Made by a program: the position numbers and the translations under genes. Shown here one piece after another: positions 4,266 through 19,423 of a stretch of 64,000 nt of DNA (position 1 is the stretch's first letter; the number at the start of each line of letters is the position of its first letter). The notes under the pieces are model-generated. The model did no database searches, had not been told where the DNA came from, and saw nothing but the letters and a program-made list of their open reading frames with translations. This DNA is from an uncultured delta proteobacterium (GTDB lineage: Bacteria; Myxococcota_A; Polyangia; Palsa-1104), in contig CAWAWS010000002.1 of the NCBI GenBank assembly GCA_963785725.1, forward strand, positions 224,001-288,000. Direction: 5' to 3'.

Positions 4266-5439
4266 TCAATTCGGCGACGGATAATTGCGCGCGACGTAGC
4301 AGAGGCCGTCGGAGTTGAGGTGGCCCTGCGTCGACTGATCGTAGTCCATGTAGTCGTGATAGTCGCGCATGACCTGGCTCGGATCGCCGGTCGGGCTGTA
4401 CTGGATGCCGAGGCTGTCGAAGCCCATCTGCGGGTTCTGATTGGGCGGCGATGTAGCTCGGCATCGCAGGCGCGCCACGGCAGCGGATTGCCCGCCGGAT
4501 CGACGAACGCCTGATAATCCACGCCCGTCGTGTCGTCGAGGCTCACGAGATAGCAGCCGTCCGGCTGCAGCTTGGCCAGCGACGCCAGCTGATCGAAGTG
4601 CGCCGGCGTGTCGTGCACGAAGCTCTCCCAGAACGGATGGTCGGTGTGAAAGGTGACCTGCGCGATGGTCTGCGTGTTGTCTTTGACCTGCACGCCGCGC
4701 TCGTGATCCTCGCCGCCGATTCCCAGCGCCGGATCGTTGTCGGGGTTCTGGCAGTTCGCGTAGGTCGTCGGCGTGGCGAAGCCGAAGCGGAAGTTGACCG
4801 TCGTGCGGAATCGCCGAGAAGTCGTAGGAGGCCGGCCCGGTCGACTTGCAGGTCGACGCCCGCCGCGTCGCCCTTCCAGGTCGCCGTGCCGACGTAGAGG
4901 ACGTTCCAGCCGTTCTGCACCATCTCGGCGTAGTCGGCGTCGCCGGCGTCGATTTGCAGCAGCTTGGCCGACGCCGTCGCCGGCACCGACTGGAAGCCGA
5001 ACGCGTAGCGCACCGACGAGTCGAAGGCCGCGCCGCCGTTCAGGTTCTGGTTGGCGATCGCCTCGATGGGAAAGGCCTGCTCGTCGCTGCCGCCTTTGCC
5101 GCTGAGCGGTCCGCCTTGTGCAGGTCGATCGCCCACGGTCCGTCGATCTCGGCCACCTTCTTGCCCGTCAGCGACTGATCGGTCGCCGACAAGTCCGGGC
5201 GTCTCCGACAGCGTCACCTTGTCGAAGACGGCGATGAACTTCGTGAAGTGCACCTCCCAGCCGTCGACGAAGTCGGCGTCGCCGGCGTTCACCGGCGGGA
5301 AGGCATAGCCGCCGAGCGCCAGCACCTCGCCCGACGCCGTGAACTGCACGGTGCCGCCGCCGCTCTTCGTCGCCGCGCCGTTACCGCCACATCCTGCCGT
5401 CGCTACTGCCAGGGCCGCTACGATCCATGAAACGCGCAT
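4266..5439 (-). CDS. Lipoprotein associated with the TonB-dependent receptor (several indels)
   Basis: MRVSWIVAALAVATAGC lipobox; protein-like segments across ORFs 4543-5463, 4211-4693 and 4266-4478 (FVDGWEVHF, DHPFWESFVHD, QGHLNSDGLC). Confidence 0.7.
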
Positions 5440-5459: not shown

Positions 5460-6331
5460 TCACTGCGGGTTGGACACGTCGAACTGATAGACCCGAAGGT
5501 CCGGCTTGCCCGGTGGCGGCGGCCCTGCGTTGGAGGTGAAGCCGCTGAACAGCTGCAAGCCGAAGACGCTCGAGTCGTTGGGGATGGTCAGCGTCGTCGT
5601 CGCGCCGGTCGGCGCCCAGGTCTCGAAGTCGACGCTGTTGAAGATGTTGGCGAGGTTGACGCGCATCGTGAGCGTGCCGCCGTTGTCAATGGTGACGCCG
5701 GTCGTGACGCCTTCTGCAACGAGCGGCGGGCGACGATGCGCTGAAGGCAGATCGGATGCTGGCCCGGCGTCGCCACGCTCGACGGCGCCTGCGCGTGATT
5801 GCTGCCGATGGTGACGAGGCCGGTGAACGGCCACGACAGCCCATCTTTTTCGGCGGTGCCGGCGACTTGCAGGAGCGGCGTCTCGTCGTCGGCGGCGTTG
5901 ATGTCGCCGCCGCTCAGCCACACGTCGGCGGTGAAGGCTTGGTTGAGCGTGCCGTCGCCGGGCGTGGGAAACGGCACCAGCGCGCCCGACAAGAGGTCGA
6001 GCGTCGACGCCGCAGCTGTTGGTGCTGGCGCAGGCGCCGAAGACTTCGTCGACGTAGACGCCGGGCAAGATGCACGGCTGCGTCCGGGCTGCCCGAGCGA
6101 CGGGACGAGCTGGTTGAAGTAGACGGCGCCGACGTGGAAGCGCGCCTCGGTCAGCGCAGATGTCGTAGCCGTTCCCGCTCGTGAACGAGAACGGCTGCGC
6201 CGGCGACGACGCCTGCCGGGCCCGCCGGCGCGCGCCGCGAACGTAGACCAGGCCGCTGCCGGTCGTGCCGTTGCAGCCGGCCACAGCGCGACGGCGCCCA
6301 CAAGTAAACAAGCGTTTACAACGCGCCTCAT
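5460..6331 (-). CDS. Second receptor-associated lipoprotein (several indels)
   Basis: MRRVVNACLLVGAVAL...AGCNGTTG; ATGA overlap with the receptor stop; segments PCILPGVYVDEV, HPICLQR and NIFNSVDF in alternating frames. Confidence 0.65.
6304..6319. repeat. Third copy of the GTAAAC-N4-GTTTAC palindrome
   Basis: gtaaacaagcgtttac inside the 5' end of the lipoprotein CDS. Confidence 0.6.
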
Positions 6332-8987
6332 CGGCGATCTCCGTAGTGAAGCGACGAGCGACCACAAGAACGTCAGCGGCGCGCCGGCGGTGAAGGCGCG
6401 CGCCGGCACCAGCGTCGGCTGCGTCTGCGAGTGGAAGTCGGAGGCGTAGTTGTATTCGCCGAGCCGATACTTCGTGTCGAGCAGGTTCTGCGCCGCGATG
6501 CCCGTCTCGACGAACCACCAGCGCAAGCGTGACGCCGGCGTCGACGGTGAAGATGGTCTGCGAGCGCTCGCCATAGGGCAGCGGGCGCGGGCCGACGTAG
6601 GTGACGCCGAGCGCGCAGCGAGCGCGAACAGCGCGTGCTCGTGCCAGCGCGTCCAGCGCCACGGCAGCGTGCCGAAGAGCGCGCCGTCGCCGCGCAAGCA
6701 CCAGGTCGGGCACGTAAGGGACGAGGAGGCTCGTGCCTTGCGTAGGTCGCGCGCACCCACGTCAGGTTGGCGCCGACGTCGTAGAAGCGGCCGATCGGCG
6801 CGCAAGCGTCGAGGCGGAGCCGATGCGCGTGGTCGGACCGTCGAGCTGCACGCTGTCCCGACGTCGGCTGGAAGATGAGATCGTGGTCGACGTTGGTGTT
6901 GAAGACGACCGAGCTGAGCGACAGGTCGATGGCGCCTCGCGGAAGCGGTTGCGCGTAGCTGAGGCCGCCTTCGTACGAGCCGTGATGTGCGCGAACGGCG
7001 TCTTGGCGTCCTGCGTGATGTAGATGGGATCGATCGAGCGCACGCCCTCGCCCGCCGACGCCGGTGCGCGAGAGGCCCCAAAACGGCCCGACGAGGACGC
7101 TGCCGCGCGGCATGTAGGCCAGCGACGCCGTCGACGCGCGCTGCGTCGGCTCGCGGTAGGCGCCCATGTTCTCCTCGCTCAGGCAGCTCTGGCCGTAGAG
7201 CGGCTCGGTCGGGTTCGGGATGCTCGACCGTCCTGCACGGCGCAGTTGTTCTGCACGTCGAACGTGAAGAGATCGCCGCGCACGCCGCCGCGCAGCGCCA
7301 GCCAGCGCACCGGCCGCAGGTTGACGTCGGCGTAGAGGCCGATGTCGCCGAGCCGGAAAGTCGTTGTCGACGTCGGTTTGGTACGGGTGGCCGGTCGCCG
7401 CTTCGATGCGCTGCTGGATGCCGGAGCCGAAGTCGCCGCGCGCGAAGTAGCCGATCTCGATCTCCTGCAGCTGCTTGAGGACGACGCCCGACAGCCGCGC
7501 CGAGCCGCGCAGACCGACGGTCTCCTCCATGATGTTGAGGTCGACGAGATCGCCGCGCTGGCCGTGCGACGGCTGCAGCGGGCTCTGCACGTCGAGCAGA
7601 AAGCCGGTGAAGTTCTCGCGCAGACGCAGCGGCCGCACGATGCCGAAGACCAGGTTCTCGGTGCGAACGTGCTCGCCCTTGTGCGACACCGCGACGCCGA
7701 CCGAGTAGCGCTGCGCGTCCTCGCCCTGCAGCGGATCTTCGGTGCAGTAGAAGCAGACGCGGCCGGAGCGATAGTCGTCGTCGCGCACGACGCCGGCCGA
7801 GTGGAAGCTGGAGATGTACGCCTGCGCGAACAAGCCGGTAGCGCGTGGCGCCGCTGCCGCCTTCGTATTGCGCCATGGCCGAGCCGCGCTCGCCCGAGCG
7901 GTTCTGACCGTAGCCGGCGGTCTGAATAGAGCTCGACGGCGGCGAAGGTGCTCGTCGCTCATGTGCTGCGGGCCGTACAGGAGCAGCATGCGATTGGTGC
8001 CGTAGTTTCCCGTCGAGAACTTGGCCGTCAGCCCGCGCTCGGCGAGGCCGAGGTGGTAGTCGGCCGAGCCGGCGACGGCGTAGTTGCCCTGGCGCGGATC
8101 GAACGGCCCTTCGAGCACGCGCAGCGACTGGACGAGCTCGGGGATGATGAAGTGCAGGTCGGAGTAGCCGTTGCCGTGCAGGTTGCCCGACTCGTTGATG
8201 GGAATGCCGTCGACGGTGAACTCGATGTCCTGACCTTCGCGCGCGTCGAAGCCGCGCAAGAAGACCTGCTCGGCGTGGCCTTCGCCGCCTTCGTTGGTGA
8301 GCAGGATGCCGGGCGCGAGCTTGAGGAACTCGGCGGCGTTCGCCGCGCGGCACGAGCGCCAGCGCGCCGACGTCGACGTGGTAGTCGGAGGCGCCGCGGC
8401 TCGGTGGCGCCTTGATGTGCCCGGTGACGTCGGACGCGTAGGTGCGCTCCGCGCCGGGCAACGACGCGGCAGCTCGGGCGCGCCGGCGGCTCGGCGGCAG
8501 GCGCCGCGGTCGGCGGCGGCGGGCTGGCCGCGGCTCGGCGTCGGCGCGACGGGAGCGGAGCGGCCGGCGTCGGCGCGGCGTCGGGCGCGTGGCCGTGGCG
8601 AAAGTGGAACGGGATGCGCACCTGGCTCTCGATGGGCTTGCCGTTGCGCAGCGCCGGCGTGAACGTCCATTGCCGCGCCGCCGCCAACGCCGCGTCGTCG
8701 AACGGGTCGCCGGCGTGCTCGGCGACCTCGACGGCGGTGACCTCGCCATGCACGCCGACCGTCGCCAAGACGACGACGTCGGCTTCGCGCGCCTCGGCGT
8801 CGGCCGGGTATTCGGCTTTGACGCCGTGCACGACCGCGGGCGGCGTCAAGACGTCGGCCGCCTGCGCCGACGCGACGGCGGACCAGGCGACGACGAGCGC
8901 GACGACCGGCGCCCACGACAGGCGCACCCACTGCAACAACTGATCGACCGGCGCGCACGCCAATCTTGCGAGCGAACGAGACTGCAC
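6328..8987 (-). CDS. TonB-dependent outer-membrane receptor with fused N-terminal TonB C-terminal domain (multiple indels)
   Basis: GAGGAG then GTG at 8987; signal peptide; TonB_C-like YP...FDDAALAAARQWTFTPA...PFHF; plug PGILLTNEGGEGHAEQVFLRGFD...VDGIPIN...IIPE...VLEGPF; barrel end QNLLDTKY. Confidence 0.88.
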
Positions 8988-9205
8988 GGCGCAACTCCTC
9001 GCGAAGCAATCGCTCCGCGTTCAATGGCGAATCCGACTGTGGCAAGCGCGCACGGCGAAACGCGTGCACGAAACGGCCGCGACCGACGACGACGGTGGCG
9101 CGACGCAGGGCTGGTACCGCGCGCGTACGCCGTCGACGAGGGTCGACGTGCACGCGGCGCGCCCGAGCGTCAGCGCTTCACCTCAGGGCGAAGTCGGAGA
9201 CGGCG

Positions 9206-9637
9206 TTAGGAGGCGAGCGGCGGAGAGCTTTTGGGCGCGAGCGAGAGCAGAGCGATGGCGGGTGCGGGCGTGACGTGCGCGGCCAGGACGAAGGCGCGCG
9301 GGTCGGCGGTCGCCGGCGGCAGCACGCGAGCGTGCGACTCCGGCAGCGCGCGCTGGCGGCGGAACGCGGCCAGCGGGCAGTGCTCGTGGCCGTGGCCGGG
9401 CTCGCCCGACGCCGCGATGTGCGGCTCGGTGACCGGCTTGGCGTCGGCGACGGCCGGCGCGCCCGAGTCGCGCGCGACGTCAATCTGCTCGCCGTGCTCC
9501 AAGCAGGTGACGTGCTGGACCACCGCCAAGTGGGCGACGCTGCCCAGCTGCGCGACGAGCGACAGCGCGGCGATGAGCCCGGCGGCGAAGCGCGCGCGCG
9601 GTGCGTTGCGGCGGTTATGCAGGCTACCGAACAACAT
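9206..9637 (-). CDS. His/Cys-rich membrane-targeted small protein, DUF2946-like candidate regulatory uORF
   Basis: 143 aa: hydrophobic N-terminal segment, HLAVVQHVTCLEHGE, HGHEHCPL, C-terminal LAPKSSPPLAS; co-oriented 218 bp upstream of the receptor. Confidence 0.7.
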   Translation of the reverse strand: MLFGSLHNRRNAPRARFAAGLIAALSLVAQLGSVAHLAVVQHVTCLEHGEQIDVARDSGAPAVADAKPVTEPHIAASGEPGHGHEHCPLAAFRRQRALPESHARVLPPATADPRAFVLAAHVTPAPAIALLSLAPKSSPPLAS

Positions 9638-9705
9638 TCAGATCAGCATTCGGTCTACGCGATCGCAGACGCAGAAGTCAAGCCGACGCCTGCAACATCG
9701 TCGCG

Positions 9706-10731
9706 TCAGCGACGGCTGACTTGCACCGGCCGCCCCGCTTCCTTCTTGTGCAGCTTGGGCCGCTTGACGTCGAACGACGGCTTTTGGTTGGGATCGCAGT
9801 TGGGGGCAAAGCCGGCGGCGTTGAAGTGATACTCGAGGCTGCCGGCGCCGCGCCCTTTGACGTCGGCCTCGATGCGCACGTCGTGCTCACCGGCGCGCGC
9901 CGGCGAGCAGTAGCTGAACAGGTAGAACGACTTCGTGTACGCCTCGACGGCGGCCGCGATCTGGTCGAACGCCGCCTTGACCGCTTGCGGATCGCGCGAC
10001 GTCACCGAGCCGGCGCGACCGATGGCGCGCAATTCACCGGGATCGATCTCGGCGCCGACACCGATGACGAAGACGCCGATCTGCCCTTTGACGTCGTCGA
10101 GCGCCTTCATGAGATCCTCGCGCGACACCCGATGCGCGTGGTCGGTGCCGTCGGTGAAGACGACGAGCGTGCCGAACTTGAGCGGCTGCGGCGCGTGCTC
10201 CATCTGCTTGCCCAACACACCCAAGGCTTCGATGACGGCGCCGTTCAAGTTGGTCGACGGATCGCGCGGCTTGTAGTGCGCCAGGGCGTCGATGCCGCCT
10301 TTGACCGAGCCGCCGCCGGAGGTGAAGCCGACGATGGGATGAATCTCCTTCTCGCCGGCGAAGGCGTAGACGGCGACCTCTTGCGTCTTCGAGACGCGAT
10401 CGGTGAACTGCGAGGCCGCTTCGGTGAGCTGCCCGATGGCGCCCGAGCCGGTCACCGAGCCGGAGACGTCCATCAGCAAGAGCGTGTACTGCACGGCGGC
10501 GACTTCGGGGTTCAGGATCGTCTGCTTCGACTCGAAGGGCGAGACGAGCTTGCCGTCTTCGTAGACGTGGAACTGATCGGCGGCCAGGTTGGCGACGCCG
10601 ACGTCTTTGTGATCGACGACCGAGAAGTAGACGGCGACGTTGGACGGCTTGCGGACGCTGGCGTCGACGAGGCCGAGCTTGAGACCACAGCCGCACAAGA
10701 GCAGCGACGAGATGACGAGCGCGCGATTCAT
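9706..10731 (-). CDS. von Willebrand factor A domain lipoprotein
   Basis: LLLCGC lipobox; MIDAS motif LLMDVSGS, STNL, VVFTDG. Confidence 0.85.
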   Translation of the reverse strand: MNRALVISSLLLCGCGLKLGLVDASVRKPSNVAVYFSVVDHKDVGVANLAADQFHVYEDGKLVSPFESKQTILNPEVAAVQYTLLLMDVSGSVTGSGAIGQLTEAASQFTDRVSKTQEVAVYAFAGEKEIHPIVGFTSGGGSVKGGIDALAHYKPRDPSTNLNGAVIEALGVLGKQMEHAPQPLKFGTLVVFTDGTDHAHRVSREDLMKALDDVKGQIGVFVIGVGAEIDPGELRAIGRAGSVTSRDPQAVKAAFDQIAAAVEAYTKSFYLFSYCSPARAGEHDVRIEADVKGRGAGSLEYHFNAAGFAPNCDPNQKPSFDVKRPKLHKKEAGRPVQVSRR

Positions 10732-10828
10732 GGCGCCGACCGTAGCACGCAACCTCCGCGACGGATCAAGCGGCGCGCGATATGGCGAGGCCAAGCCACG
10801 CCCAGCTCCACCTAGCCCAGCGCAAATA

Positions 10829-11470
10829 TTACAGCAGCGAGAGCTGGCCGCGTGGCCGCACGGCGTCGAGGAGCGTCGCGTCATCGTTCGTCGTCAGGCC
10901 GACGCGCGGCGAGACCGGCGTCGCCGTCAGCGTTCCGTCGGGCGCGGGGACGAGCACGTCGAGCGCCGGGCGCGCCAGCCACTCGGCCACGCACGCCGGC
11001 GTCAGCAGCACCGGCATGCGGTCGTGCACCGCGCGCGCCTCGGCGTTGGCGGCCGCGGTGACGACGACGAAGCGGGCGCCGTCGGGGCTCGGCTCCCATA
11101 AGCCGGCGAACGCGAGCAGGCGATCGTCGGGCGCGTGGAACCAATAGGGCTGCCCGCCTTGCCACTCGAAGTAGCCGTCGGCGGGCACGACACAGCGGCG
11201 CTCGCGTAGGGCGTCGGCGAAGCGCGCGCGCTCGGCCAGCGACTCGGCGCGACCGTTGATGATGGGCCGGCCGTCGCGCGACGCAAAACCCCACGCGGCG
11301 CGCGACAACGTGCGGCGTCTGCCGTCCGCGCGCACGATCGGATGCGGCTGCGCCGGCGCGACGTTGAAGCGCGGACGCCAATCCTCCGCGTCGGCCGAGT
11401 CGGCATCGGCGCCGAGCAGTCGAGCGATGGCGCGCCAATCGGGCTTTTGCAGCGTCATGCGACCGCACAT
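10829..11470 (-). CDS. SOS response-associated peptidase (SRAP/YedK/HMCES family)
   Basis: N-terminal MCGR, PRFNVAP, INGRAE, RCVVPADGYFEW, HDRMPV. Confidence 0.93.
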   Translation of the reverse strand: MCGRMTLQKPDWRAIARLLGADADSADAEDWRPRFNVAPAQPHPIVRADGRRRTLSRAAWGFASRDGRPIINGRAESLAERARFADALRERRCVVPADGYFEWQGGQPYWFHAPDDRLLAFAGLWEPSPDGARFVVVTAAANAEARAVHDRMPVLLTPACVAEWLARPALDVLVPAPDGTLTATPVSPRVGLTTNDDATLLDAVRPRGQLSLL

Positions 11471-11494: not shown

Positions 11495-13744
11495 CTAATT
11501 GACGGGCTCGAGCGCGATTTCGCCCGACGGCCGCCGCGGCTTGAGCGCGCGCTCGGCCGCCCGCATCGCGTCGGCGTCGCGCGCCGCGGCCACGGCGGTC
11601 AGGTTGATCTCCTCGAGCAGCCCGCGCTTGCGGCGATAGTCGACGTGCTCGTCGTAGCCGGGACCGGTGAACGCCGTCGAGCGCTCGATATACTCCAGCC
11701 GCTCGCGCTCGCGCTGCTCGTGAATGCGCCGCATGTCGTCGGGACCGCGGATGATGTAGGGCGTCAACACGATCAACAGATCCTGCTTCGTCCGCTGCTT
11801 GCTCTTCGACTGAAACAGCCGCCCCAAGATGGGAATGTCACCGAGCAGCGGGATCTTCGTCACCACCTCCGACTCCGACTCCTTCGTCAGACCGCCGAGC
11901 ACGACGCAATCGCCGTCGCGCACCACCACCGCCGTCTTGATCTTGCGATCGTTCGTCGTCGGACCGCCCGGCACCGACGTGCTGGCGTTGTTGGCGACGT
12001 CCTCGATGTTGCCGTCGATCTCGAGGCGAATCGAGTTCGACTCGTTCAAGTGCGGCGTCAGCTCCAGCGTCAACGCCACCGGCGTGCGCTGATAGGTCGC
12101 CGCCAGCGCCGTCGACGCCCCGGTCGTGGCCGAGGCCAGCGACGACGTCTGGTAGACGATGTTCTGCCCCACCGAGATCGACGACTTGGTGTTGTCCATC
12201 ATCAACAGATGCGGCCGCGAGATGACGTTCGAGTTCGTGCTCGTCTCCAAGGCCTGCAAGACGACGCCGAAGCTGGGAATGTCGGTGCCGAGGAACGAGA
12301 ACGCCTGGCCGAACACGCCGGCGAAGAGGCCGCCCGACGCCGCCGCCGCCGCCACGCTCGTCGGGCTGAACGTCACGGCGTTCGTCCCCGACTCCGACGC
12401 GACCGCCGCCGTCGTCGTCGACGTGCCGCTCGCGTTCGTCGCCGCCGCGCCTTGATGAAAGGTGACGCCGATGCTGCGCAGGTTGTCGAGCGACAAATCG
12501 AGGATCACCGCTTCGACGTAGACCTGGCGCCGCTGCACGTCGAGCTTGGCCACCAAGTCGCGCACCATCGCCCAGTCGACGGCGTTGGCATAGACGACGA
12601 GCGCGTTCGACGTCTTGTCGGCGCCGATGCGCACCTCGCCCGAGAGCGGCAGCGCCGCCGATGAGCTGAGCGGCGTCGACGGTGTGGCCGCGCCGCCCGC
12701 CGTGTTGACCGGGCGCGCCGTCGACGAGGACGCCGCCGAGCGACTGCCGAGCCCGATCGATTGCAGCGTCGCGGCGACGTCCTCGGCGTTGGTGTTGGCG
12801 AGATAGAGCACGTGGCCTTGCGACGCCGCGCCGTCGTCGGCCGGCGGATCGATGCGCGCCGCGATCGCCTGCACGCGCTGCCAGCCGACCTCGTTGCCGA
12901 TGATGGCCAGCTGGCGCGCGCTGTCGAGCGGCACGAGGGCGCGCACGTCGCCGTCGAGCGCCACGGCCATCGGATGCGCGCCTTTGTCGCCGCTCGCCGG
13001 CGCCGGCGAATGATGCGACGCCGCCGACAAGATCTTCTCCAGCGCCGCCGCCAGCTCCGTCGGCGACTGGCCGTGCGTCTCCATCGTGTAGATGCGCGCG
13101 CCCGCTTCGCCGACGTCGAGCGCCCGCGCCACGTCCTCCATGCGCCGCACGTTCACGGCGCGGTCGATGAGCACCAGCGACGCCGCGCCGAAGACGCTGA
13201 CGTCGCCGTCCTTCGACTTCAGCTTGCCGAGGAGCTCGGCCAGCTCGCTCGGCGTCGCGTGCGCCGGATGAAACAGCCGGACGACGAAGCGATCATCGAG
13301 CGGCACTGCGCCGTCGCCGAGCTCGGGCGACGCCACTTCGCGCGCGCGGCCGGAGTCGACGATCTTGATCGCGCCCGCCGAGGCGTCGACGGTCAGCCCC
13401 ATCACCTCCAGCGCACCATAGAAGAGGCGATAGACGTCGGCCGCGGTCACGAGATCGGGCACCTCGAGCACCATCTTGCCGTTCCGCTGCGCGACGGCGC
13501 TGGCGACGAGAATGGGCCGACACGAGATCTCGCCCAGCGACGCCGCCAGCTCGCTGACGCCGACTTCGCCGCGCACCGTCCACTTGAACTTCTTGTCGGG
13601 CGGATACTTCTTGCAGCCCAAGAACTCGTCGGCGCCGGGCGGCGTCGCCGTCGGCTTGACCGCGAGCAGGCGCTCCTCGCGCGCGCCGGCCACGCCGGCC
13701 ATGAAAATCGACAGCAACGTCAGTACGAACGCATCCCCGCGCAT
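11495..13744 (-). CDS. gspD: Type II secretion system secretin GspD
   Basis: N domains, then QVYVEAVI, SRPHLL, LELTPH, VVLGGL, KIPLLGDIPILGRLF, LLIVLTPYI. Confidence 0.9.
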   Translation of the reverse strand: MRGDAFVLTLLSIFMAGVAGAREERLLAVKPTATPPGADEFLGCKKYPPDKKFKWTVRGEVGVSELAASLGEISCRPILVASAVAQRNGKMVLEVPDLVTAADVYRLFYGALEVMGLTVDASAGAIKIVDSGRAREVASPELGDGAVPLDDRFVVRLFHPAHATPSELAELLGKLKSKDGDVSVFGAASLVLIDRAVNVRRMEDVARALDVGEAGARIYTMETHGQSPTELAAALEKILSAASHHSPAPASGDKGAHPMAVALDGDVRALVPLDSARQLAIIGNEVGWQRVQAIAARIDPPADDGAASQGHVLYLANTNAEDVAATLQSIGLGSRSAASSSTARPVNTAGGAATPSTPLSSSAALPLSGEVRIGADKTSNALVVYANAVDWAMVRDLVAKLDVQRRQVYVEAVILDLSLDNLRSIGVTFHQGAAATNASGTSTTTAAVASESGTNAVTFSPTSVAAAAASGGLFAGVFGQAFSFLGTDIPSFGVVLQALETSTNSNVISRPHLLMMDNTKSSISVGQNIVYQTSSLASATTGASTALAATYQRTPVALTLELTPHLNESNSIRLEIDGNIEDVANNASTSVPGGPTTNDRKIKTAVVVRDGDCVVLGGLTKESESEVVTKIPLLGDIPILGRLFQSKSKQRTKQDLLIVLTPYIIRGPDDMRRIHEQRERERLEYIERSTAFTGPGYDEHVDYRRKRGLLEEINLTAVAAARDADAMRAAERALKPRRPSGEIALEPVN

Positions 13745-16557: not shown

Positions 16558-16639
16558 CCCCGCGGCGGCGAGGCCGCGCGCGCGGTCCAATCGCGTCGGG
16601 TCGCACCGTCGGCAGAGTGTGCTAGTGTCCAAGGCTTCG

Positions 16640-19423
<2,784 letters not shown>

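Follow-up and report, generated by a model that had tools for sequence, protein, structure and literature searches.

What is the function of the short open reading frame (ORF) that precedes a TonB-dependent receptor operon in an uncultured delta proteobacterium of the class Polyangia (lineage Palsa-1104)? The window, a stretch of 64,000 nucleotides (nt) from assembly GCA_963785725.1 (contig CAWAWS010000002.1, positions 224,001 to 288,000), carries this ORF on its minus strand at 9206..9637; all positions below are those of the window. A preliminary description had read the ORF as a metal-sensing leader that arrests the ribosome at a KSSPP-type C terminus and thereby controls the receptor operon. 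Our analysis suggests that the leader is probably a metal-sensing ribosome-stalling switch, with zinc the probable metal, that would uncover the ribosome-binding site (RBS) of the next gene. The preliminary description was borne out in the place of the motif, the synteny, and the lack of a promoter-like motif in the spacer, and was not borne out in the specificity for TonB receptors and the role given to a hairpin.

A conserved leader family ending in APKxSPP

The ORF encodes 143 amino acids from an ATG at 9637 down to 9206, and the elements first noted in it were all present: an N-terminal hydrophobic segment (residues 22-40; Kyte-Doolittle 19-mer mean of 1.94), the His/Cys clusters HLAVVQHVTCLEHGE and HGHEHC, and the C terminus LAPKSSPPLAS directly before the stop codon. 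In the AlphaFold2 model, residues 12-39 (9521..9604, minus strand), preceded by an Arg-rich N terminus, form a helix (predicted local distance difference test score 92-98) that hydrophobicity likewise points to as a membrane or signal helix. A hairpin at residues 42-53 (strands 42-44 and 51-53) and a helix at residues 86-95 follow, whereas the rest of the model has little structure (predicted template modeling score, pTM, 0.40). No match was obtained at E≤0.001 in a fold search with this model. A hydrophobic 19-mer of at least 1.6 was found in 115 of the 124 family members of testable length.

Searching with the leader protein returned 17 homologues, and a profile built from them retrieved 3207 representatives at 50% identity that share the motifs. 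The family was matched in 95/401 sampled genomes of the phylum and 20/42 of the order; nearly all named homologues are Polyangia, Myxococcales, or other myxobacterial records, so that the window probably comes from Myxococcota, and Myxococcus xanthus AM003 has a copy (L054). The profile search detected a single copy in the source genome, with no further paralogues. NCBIfam holds no family for the leader, and a metagenome scan with the single leader protein gave two weak loci that were left unused. From the loci, 184 leaders that end in PKxxPP were gathered, of which 177 are distinct (103 clusters at 45% identity); one duplicate and six matches lacking this ending (L050, L084, one L159 copy, L210, L226, and L228) were excluded. 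Among the excluded matches, L084 is cut by a contig end, and L050 and the L159 copy look frameshifted. The distant members L210, L226, and L228 end in APSHSPP or SPINSPP and have no Lys; two of them, L226 and L228, are followed by genes for porin-like and ZnuA proteins.

In 146 aligned members, H42, C45, C87, A134, P135, K136, and P139 were invariant, and H36, H48, G49, E50, H86, S138, and P140 nearly so. The first putative metal site, H36 and H42-x2-C45-x2-H48-G-E50, lies on the predicted β-hairpin (9488..9532, minus strand), with conservation of 144/146 for H36, 146/146 for H42 and C45, 145/146 for H48, and 137/146 for E50. The second, H82-x-H84-x-H86-C87 (9377..9394, minus strand), keeps H86 in 144/146 and C87 in 146/146. 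The candidate arrest motif is APKSSPP (9218..9238, minus strand), whose codons, together with the next ~10 nt, also form a candidate anti-Shine-Dalgarno (anti-SD) sequence, as judged from conservation, codon bias, and cognate pairing (see below). PKxSPP occurs in 165/177 leaders. Conservation of this motif near the stop codon was a test set by the preliminary description, and the tail after it is 1-4 residues long in 166/177; the stop lies 1-2 codons beyond Pro-Pro in 84/106. Since the Ala and Pro residues of the motif are invariant although every synonymous Ala and Pro codon occurs, the constraint acts on the protein. The distance from the second Cys (His-Cys) to the last Pro, 53 residues here, is 51-54 in 97/106 leaders when the first match is taken, and 49-56 in 168/169 under the lenient rule of choosing the Cys nearest to 52. 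By contrast, the distance from the first Cys to the last Pro varies, between 85 and 114 in one count and between 81 and 114 in another. These results indicate that the APKxSPP leader family is real, conserved, and widespread.

Two other roles of the conserved residues were considered. Cleavage just before H36, giving an N-terminal His, was not adopted, the residue at -1 being Ala in only 93/146. Sortase and myxosortase signals need a hydrophobic segment or basic tail after the motif, and such a signal was rejected because the leaders have neither. Leader paralogues number 4-5 in same-genus genomes, where one pair is arranged in tandem (L157:8666-9094, 12551-12964, and 12989-13417; L158:10345-10740); in L157, two Fur-family genes lie between divergent leaders. 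The copy ahead of a COG0523 GTPase has lost H42 and H48 (PHVECSEDGE).

A literature search, in which subscription journals were mostly outside coverage, found no description of the family. In 10 supplementary files of PMC12992588, the motif words did not occur, and APKxSPP was not found among the query motifs in the accessible part of PMC10987492. Myxobacterial names were not in three supplements of PMC9973294, the full protein list of which may contain members.

A possible distant relationship of the leader to DUF2946 proteins

The preliminary description had compared the ORF with DUF2946 leaders, such as CruR of Bordetella, and had suggested a search with the DUF2946 hidden Markov model (HMM). 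With the HMM (PF11162), the leader scored 12.3 bits (E = 0.3), below the gathering cut-off of 23.7. The model weakly matched 22/146 members at E≤1 (best 8.8e-4), compared with 2/146 for the next family, and in 151 genomes of the class, its lowest-E hit was an APKTSPP protein (22.9 bits). By hhalign, the leader family aligned with DUF2946 over 60 columns (probability 67%, E = 5e-5; the target alignment has six sequences); in this alignment, the leader His-Cys falls on the first CxxC Cys, and SPP falls on APP. One homologue, P0016, is in a cluster with 15% DUF2946 (Atlas rank 11, score 0.92). The Cys-to-Pro distance in three true DUF2946 proteins is 52, 53, and 52, matching the leader and supporting the proposed analogy. 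As described at first, the ligands are His-rich instead of CxxC: the second site reads HEHCPLA here, and CxxC occurs there in 8/177 leaders. The end of the leader is also non-RAPP; the RAPP-type Arg is in none of the motifs listed for the 177 leaders, which depart from the RAPP-like (RQH) motif (R/Q/H)-(A/G/D)-(P/G/S)-(P/G) in that the first position is mostly T, N, A, or S and the second is Ser. Because CxxC and RAPP are both missing and the score is below the cut-off, the leader is not filed under DUF2946. Judging from these alignments, the family may be a distant cousin rather than a member, common ancestry being plausible.

The following comparisons refer to those parts of the cited reports that were accessible. 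CruR (Bp2923 of Bordetella pertussis) also has ~145 residues with an export signal, an upstream Cys, and a second Cys separated from the last Pro by 52 residues (C90 and P142, a spacing that matters; PMC9426467). Its di-proline lies three residues before the stop, and it is the first gene ahead of a TonB receptor gene, across a long spacer (162 nt); its arrest was shown by toeprint (PMC12992588). The leader here likewise carries an N-terminal export signal or membrane segment, as judged from hydrophobicity and the model, and is the first gene of a metal-homeostasis operon with a long spacer. CruR, however, has CxxC and RAPP where this leader has HxHC, an extra HxxCxEHGE cluster, and the Arg-free APKxSPP. 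The neighbors of CruR are copper genes, whereas those of the APKxSPP family are ZnuA and COG0523 genes, and Rho termination was shown for CruR, whereas the evidence in the APKxSPP family is for sequestration of the Shine-Dalgarno (SD) sequence. CutF of Rhodobacter capsulatus (PMC9973294; bioRxiv 10.1101/2025.02.05.636593) is likewise exported; it carries a metal motif, ends in a Pro-rich stretch other than RAPP, and acts by opening an SD-masking structure. The rules used for CutF-like proteins (PMC9973294) ask for fewer than 150 residues, Pro-Pro among the final 15, an N-terminal signal, and a same-strand gene no more than 1000 nt away; the leader here has 143 residues, Pro-Pro at 139-140, a putative N-terminal signal, and a same-strand gene 218 nt on. 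CutF differs in its CxxxC and PPP, stalls in the presence of copper, and induces a detoxifying oxidase rather than an importer operon; in the APKxSPP family, the anti-SD sits within the motif codons themselves. The arrest peptides SecM, ApdA, and ApdP (RAPP-like, RQH), uA_LPPP, and NSP-stop (PMC10987492) share an N-terminal localization signal, a spacer, a C-terminal proline motif, and control of the next gene in cis. They differ in that they monitor Sec/YidC activity and in that the R/Q/H position is variable in the APKxSPP family.

Genes headed by the leader point to zinc

We then compared the genes that the leaders precede. Among the 177 distinct leaders, the first downstream gene encodes a porin-like protein in 69, a TonB receptor in 66, a His-tailed lipoprotein in 18, and another lipoprotein or ZnuA in 3, with 21 unassigned; 156/177 fall in receptor, porin, lipoprotein, or ZnuA clusters, and the median spacer is 103 nt. 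The proposed link to TonB receptors thus stood as synteny with metal-import genes, but not as specificity for TonB, porin-like genes ahead of ZnuA-type ABC transporters being about as frequent. "Porin-like" is a descriptive label; the protein has no Pfam, NCBIfam, or Protein Data Bank (PDB) match. In the 53 porin-first loci with enough sequence, a ZnuA-family gene was present in 52 and an ABC-3 permease gene in 44. The 34 receptor-first loci of the type in the window contained lipoprotein A in 32, lipoprotein B in 27, and ZnuA in none. A homologue of lipoprotein A was found inside ZnuA operons (hhalign 93.5%).

Three His residues are invariant in 61 ZnuA-type binding proteins, and the best PDB match of one tested binding protein was zinc ZnuA (1.3e-26, versus 1.5e-17 for Mn binders). 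In two same-genus genomes, leader paralogues stand ahead of a COG0523/CobW GTPase, a family that we take to be linked to zinc; the ZigA model scored below its cut-off. Three leaders head an outer-membrane efflux protein and AcrB-family pumps, and the two pumps tested matched CusA/CzcA best. Such use of the same leader ahead of genes with no relation to one another, a cytoplasmic GTPase and efflux pumps among them, is expected of a regulator. The preliminary description had named Ni, Zn, or Co as the sensed metal; gene context favors Zn and makes Ni and Co less favored. Zinc is our best guess for the family, and for the operon in the window, we consider it somewhat more likely than not.

Several loci showed further arrangements. 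The efflux loci (L213:3544-4827, L215:3541-4881, and L220:1111-6001) carry two APKIGPP motifs, with an altered first cluster, and one APKTSPP. In Myxococcaceae (L037-L062), the gene for a His-tailed lipoprotein follows the leader after ~275-300 nt of spacer, and an opposite-strand ABC-3 permease gene is nearby in 10/15 loci. A lipoprotein within porin-ZnuA operons (L179:3312-4091) has an invariant metal-type motif, FDPxxPPxGYxLCHxGHCH, and no Pfam match. The source genome's own ZnuA/ABC-3/ATPase operon (L174, G000:C14:358000-372000) has no detectable leader of the family.

Predicted pairing of the motif codons with the downstream SD

The codons of the motif carried a signal of their own. The motif Ser codon is UCU in 44/101 leaders, compared with 5-11% of UCN codons elsewhere, and CUCC is formed in 26/46 dereplicated loci, compared with 23-39% expected (p = 1e-6 to 0.013). 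The absence of AGY at this Ser (0/101) was not counted as RNA evidence, as a conserved Ser keeps its codon family. For the pairing test, each leader end was folded against its own RBS and those of other loci; downstream starts were assigned with a score that combines SD strength and the hydrophobicity of the signal peptide, and of 93 loci, 11 were discarded by eye as implausible. In the discovery set (n = 34, dereplicated), the cognate duplex was -16.8 kcal/mol, compared with -14.8 ± 0.5 kcal/mol for non-cognate pairs, a value reached in 0/10000 permutations. Control windows upstream (p = 0.75) and after the stop (p = 0.37) showed no such difference, and the best of 121 window pairs matched the last 20 nt of the motif with the 20 nt that precede the start codon (z = -5.0).

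The held-out set consisted of new loci, from which 12/70 with at least 45% identity to the discovery set were removed and the rest collapsed to 52, with no manual exclusions. The pre-set cell was again negative (z = -2.7, p = 0.004); the strongest, a neighboring cell that covers the last codons together with the stop, reached z = -7.6, and three control cells were null. With the RBS of a later gene as a control, z was -0.8, compared with -2.2 for the next gene in the same 35 loci. A simulated ribosome footprint raised SD accessibility by more than 0.1 in 11/34 loci and lowered it in none. These results indicate that, at the level of the family, the motif codons are complementary to the SD region of the next gene.

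Promoter, spacer, and hairpin in the window

A putative sigma70-type promoter (TTGACT, 18 nt, TAGACC; 9652..9681, minus strand) lies upstream of the leader, its -10 box being a poor match to the consensus. The arrangement TTGAC-N18..20-TA was found upstream of 30/91 dereplicated leaders, including this one, and in 0/89 spacers of similar total length; close relatives keep the same arrangement. A consensus scan for promoters and terminators called nothing at the locus, this motif included. The preliminary description had named a promoter of the receptor's own in the spacer as counterevidence, and no promoter-like motif was found there. The placement of the motif fits co-transcription of leader and operon.

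As described before, the leader is 218 nt upstream of the receptor GTG (8987) on the same strand, and the spacer (8988..9205, minus strand) contains no promoter-like or terminator-like site (0 terminator-like sites, compared with 0.8 in shuffles); such sites occur in 1/89 family spacers. Rfam gave no family at the gathering score over 8700-10000. A search of the regions ahead of 164 leaders for a shared Zur/Fur-like palindrome gave no operator-like word; the highest-ranked spaced words were GC-rich or rare.

The hairpin said to abut the receptor SD exists (9000..9019, minus strand; 8 bp, -12.4 kcal/mol), but it overlaps only the first G of GAGGAG (8995..9000, minus strand; 7 nt upstream of GTG) and so does not itself hide the SD. 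A competing helix of -27.4 kcal/mol is possible between 9239-9209, at the leader end, and 9016-8988. The spacer region as a whole folds no better than shuffles (z = -0.08). Among the 35 of 43 differences listed for the contig of one related strain, 21 were substitutions at 9037-9174 and none fell at 8981-9036 or 9175-9208, a weak hint that both spacer ends may be constrained. A three-codon ORF (Met-Leu-Ile-stop, 9649-9638, minus strand) abuts the leader ATG in frame; the leader lacks an SD, and its predicted 5' untranslated region is very short.

A model of metal-dependent stalling and its alternatives

From sequence and structure prediction, we infer the stalling, the identity of the metal, the topology of the nascent chain, and the sign of control as follows. 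One transcript would start upstream of the leader. The N-terminal helix would bring the nascent chain to the Sec translocon, placing H36, H42, C45, and H48 on the periplasmic side. The ribosome would pause while the Pro-Pro codons occupy its P and A sites, by analogy with the CruR toeprint (PMC12992588), and would cover the anti-SD so that the receptor operon is translated. At this pause, H86 and C87 would be held ~52 residues from the peptidyl-transferase center, just emerging. When metal is present, they may close a site with the H36/H42/C45/H48 cluster, and the resulting pull could end the arrest; the ribosome would then leave and the anti-SD re-pair with the SD. Where the spacer is long, as it is here, Rho may contribute to shutting the operon off. 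Such a pulling model is consistent with the variable tether that separates the clusters and with the fixed ruler that follows C87.

Several observations weigh against this model. The chief weakness of the stalling reading is the missing Arg: in the accessible part of the report on CruR (PMC12992588), arrest is abolished by an Arg-to-Ala change, and the corresponding position in the leaders varies among T, N, A, S, Q, H, G, and L. APKxSPP arrest would therefore need a different mechanism; arrest motifs without Arg do exist, at least LPPP, QAPP, and NSP-stop (PMC10987492, accessible part). The heuristic for choosing starts rewards SD strength, 11/93 discovery loci were dropped by eye, and one held-out control cell was likewise negative (z = -2.3). 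For the locus in the window alone, the duplex is not significant, with 15/151 other RBSs and 9/151 other leaders pairing equally; a simulated stalled ribosome left its SD unopened (0.13 to 0.11), and opening was predicted only in folding windows ending near the start codon. As for zinc, NCBIfam placed AztC (4e-33) barely ahead of the manganese MntC (2e-31) on the binding protein, and an MbnH gene follows the operon of one relative, which, with the MbnP-like lipoprotein A, is a copper link. The three efflux-pump loci suggest that the opposite sign of control would be needed there.

Other explanations account for parts of these data. As in CruR, the stalled ribosome could hide a C-rich Rho utilization (rut) site at the 3' end of the leader, and the last 120 nt of the leaders are richer in C than the ends of 135 control genes (skew of 0.37 versus 0.01 in the last 30 nt, and 0.11 versus 0.01 just past the stop, p = 3e-4). 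The source genome encodes Rho, the spacer is long and nearly all family spacers lack terminator-like sites, and at this single locus, the anti-SD helix does not reach significance. The C excess, however, is largely explained by Ala, Pro, and Ser codons and has faded by 30 nt past the stop. The cognate SD pairing in two independent sets favors SD uncovering over Rho termination, although the two outputs are not exclusive, and we regard Rho as an unlikely output here. Similarly improbable is a generic pause, metal-conditional rather than a strong intrinsic arrest, at Pro-Pro (EF-P-dependent, as proposed for CutF) or at the stop codon (as in NSP-stop). It would suit the absent Arg, the closeness of the stop, the strongest held-out cell spanning the last codons and the stop, and the CutF motif, which alone is not a strong staller in the accessible part of PMC9973294; against this, the invariant Ala-Pro-Lys ahead of xSPP suggests specific tunnel contacts, and the tail length ranges from 1 to 15 residues.

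The sensed metal could also be copper (or Mn, Co, or Ni), a choice that we consider improbable, though a little less so than Rho or a generic pause. CruR and CutF, as far as the accessible reports go, sense copper. The predicted fold of lipoprotein A resembles that of the copper-binding MbnP, MbnH follows one operon, the 34 receptor-type operons lack ZnuA, and CusA/CzcA pumps can export copper. Yet CxxC is rare in the leaders and WxW is missing from lipoprotein A, a homologue of which sits in ZnuA operons; the leaders of both operon types have the same ligands, and no PCuAC, SCO, or CopC family was matched among the downstream genes scanned. Least probable is a membrane-anchored metal chaperone or accessory subunit with a C-terminal binding or sorting motif. 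Such a protein would suit the nine or more conserved residues that could act as ligands, the membrane anchor, and the probable co-transcription with importers, but the model is mostly unstructured (pTM 0.40) with no fold match, the linker is unconserved and fixed in length, the motif is not followed by the hydrophobic stretch or basic tail of a sorting signal, and the genes that follow are mutually unrelated while the leader codons covary with their SDs.

The stalling switch with SD uncovering thus remains our preferred reading. Relative to CruR and CutF, for which the accessible reports show ribosome-stalling metal control by copper (PMC9426467 and PMC9973294), the motif, the ligands, and the zinc-type neighbors are different. 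Published screens, keyed on RAPP-like motifs, would miss the APKxSPP family. If the reading is true, arrest would proceed by a new chemistry without the arginine thought essential, and the stalling principle would extend to zinc, giving myxobacteria a post-transcriptional route of zinc control; a literature search, with subscription journals mostly outside coverage, found no paper on such control in myxobacteria. Predictions that follow from the family concern specific residues, a rule of spacing, and a switch in base pairing. More tentatively, the APKxSPP leaders could be phylum-wide zinc-sensing nascent-chain switches in which an Arg-free motif, stall codons that are also the anti-SD, and a 52-residue ruler at the translocon exit are re-used, with both signs of control, before importers, a COG0523 chaperone, and efflux pumps.

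The receptor operon and neighboring genes

The operon downstream of the leader begins with a TonB-dependent receptor gene (6328..8987, minus strand) with an N-terminal TonB_C domain (MxcH-like architecture), its TonB_C and plug domains lying in different frames. Intact relatives of the receptor score 87-105 bits with the MxcH model (NF038079), whose cut-off is 925. Two lipoprotein genes, located by tblastn and both frameshifted, follow on the same strand: lipoprotein A (5460..6331) and its remote paralogue lipoprotein B (4266..5439; hhalign 93.9%), which has an invariant HxDH. Lipoprotein A has a predicted MbnP-like fold; the model of a relative matched MbnP (PDB 7l6g) with a Foldseek E of 1.4e-4 (Z 8.0, root-mean-square deviation 5.9, 206 aligned). 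The operon resembles MbnP-TonB receptor operons in that lipoprotein genes come after the receptor gene and that their products have a predicted beta-sandwich like that of MbnP. It differs in that lipoprotein A, ~10% identical to MbnP, lacks the WxW (0/29 sequences), the role of which in MbnP is described in the accessible part of PMC11951088, and in that MbnH is usually not adjacent in the stretches examined. In short-read contigs from related strains, single bases are missing at 10 of the 12 operon positions listed, and the frame breaks in the receptor and lipoprotein genes are therefore most likely long-read assembly errors. An apparent isoleucyl-tRNA synthetase gene (16619-19049, plus strand), named from its sequence, is also split over several frames; it shows the rate of assembly indels, and frameshift-based findings in this genome therefore need care. 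Upstream of the leader, all on the minus strand, are genes for a VWA-domain protein (9706-10884), an SRAP peptidase (10829-11470), and an apparent secretin (11495-13744, judged by eye), which in relatives stand outside the operon.

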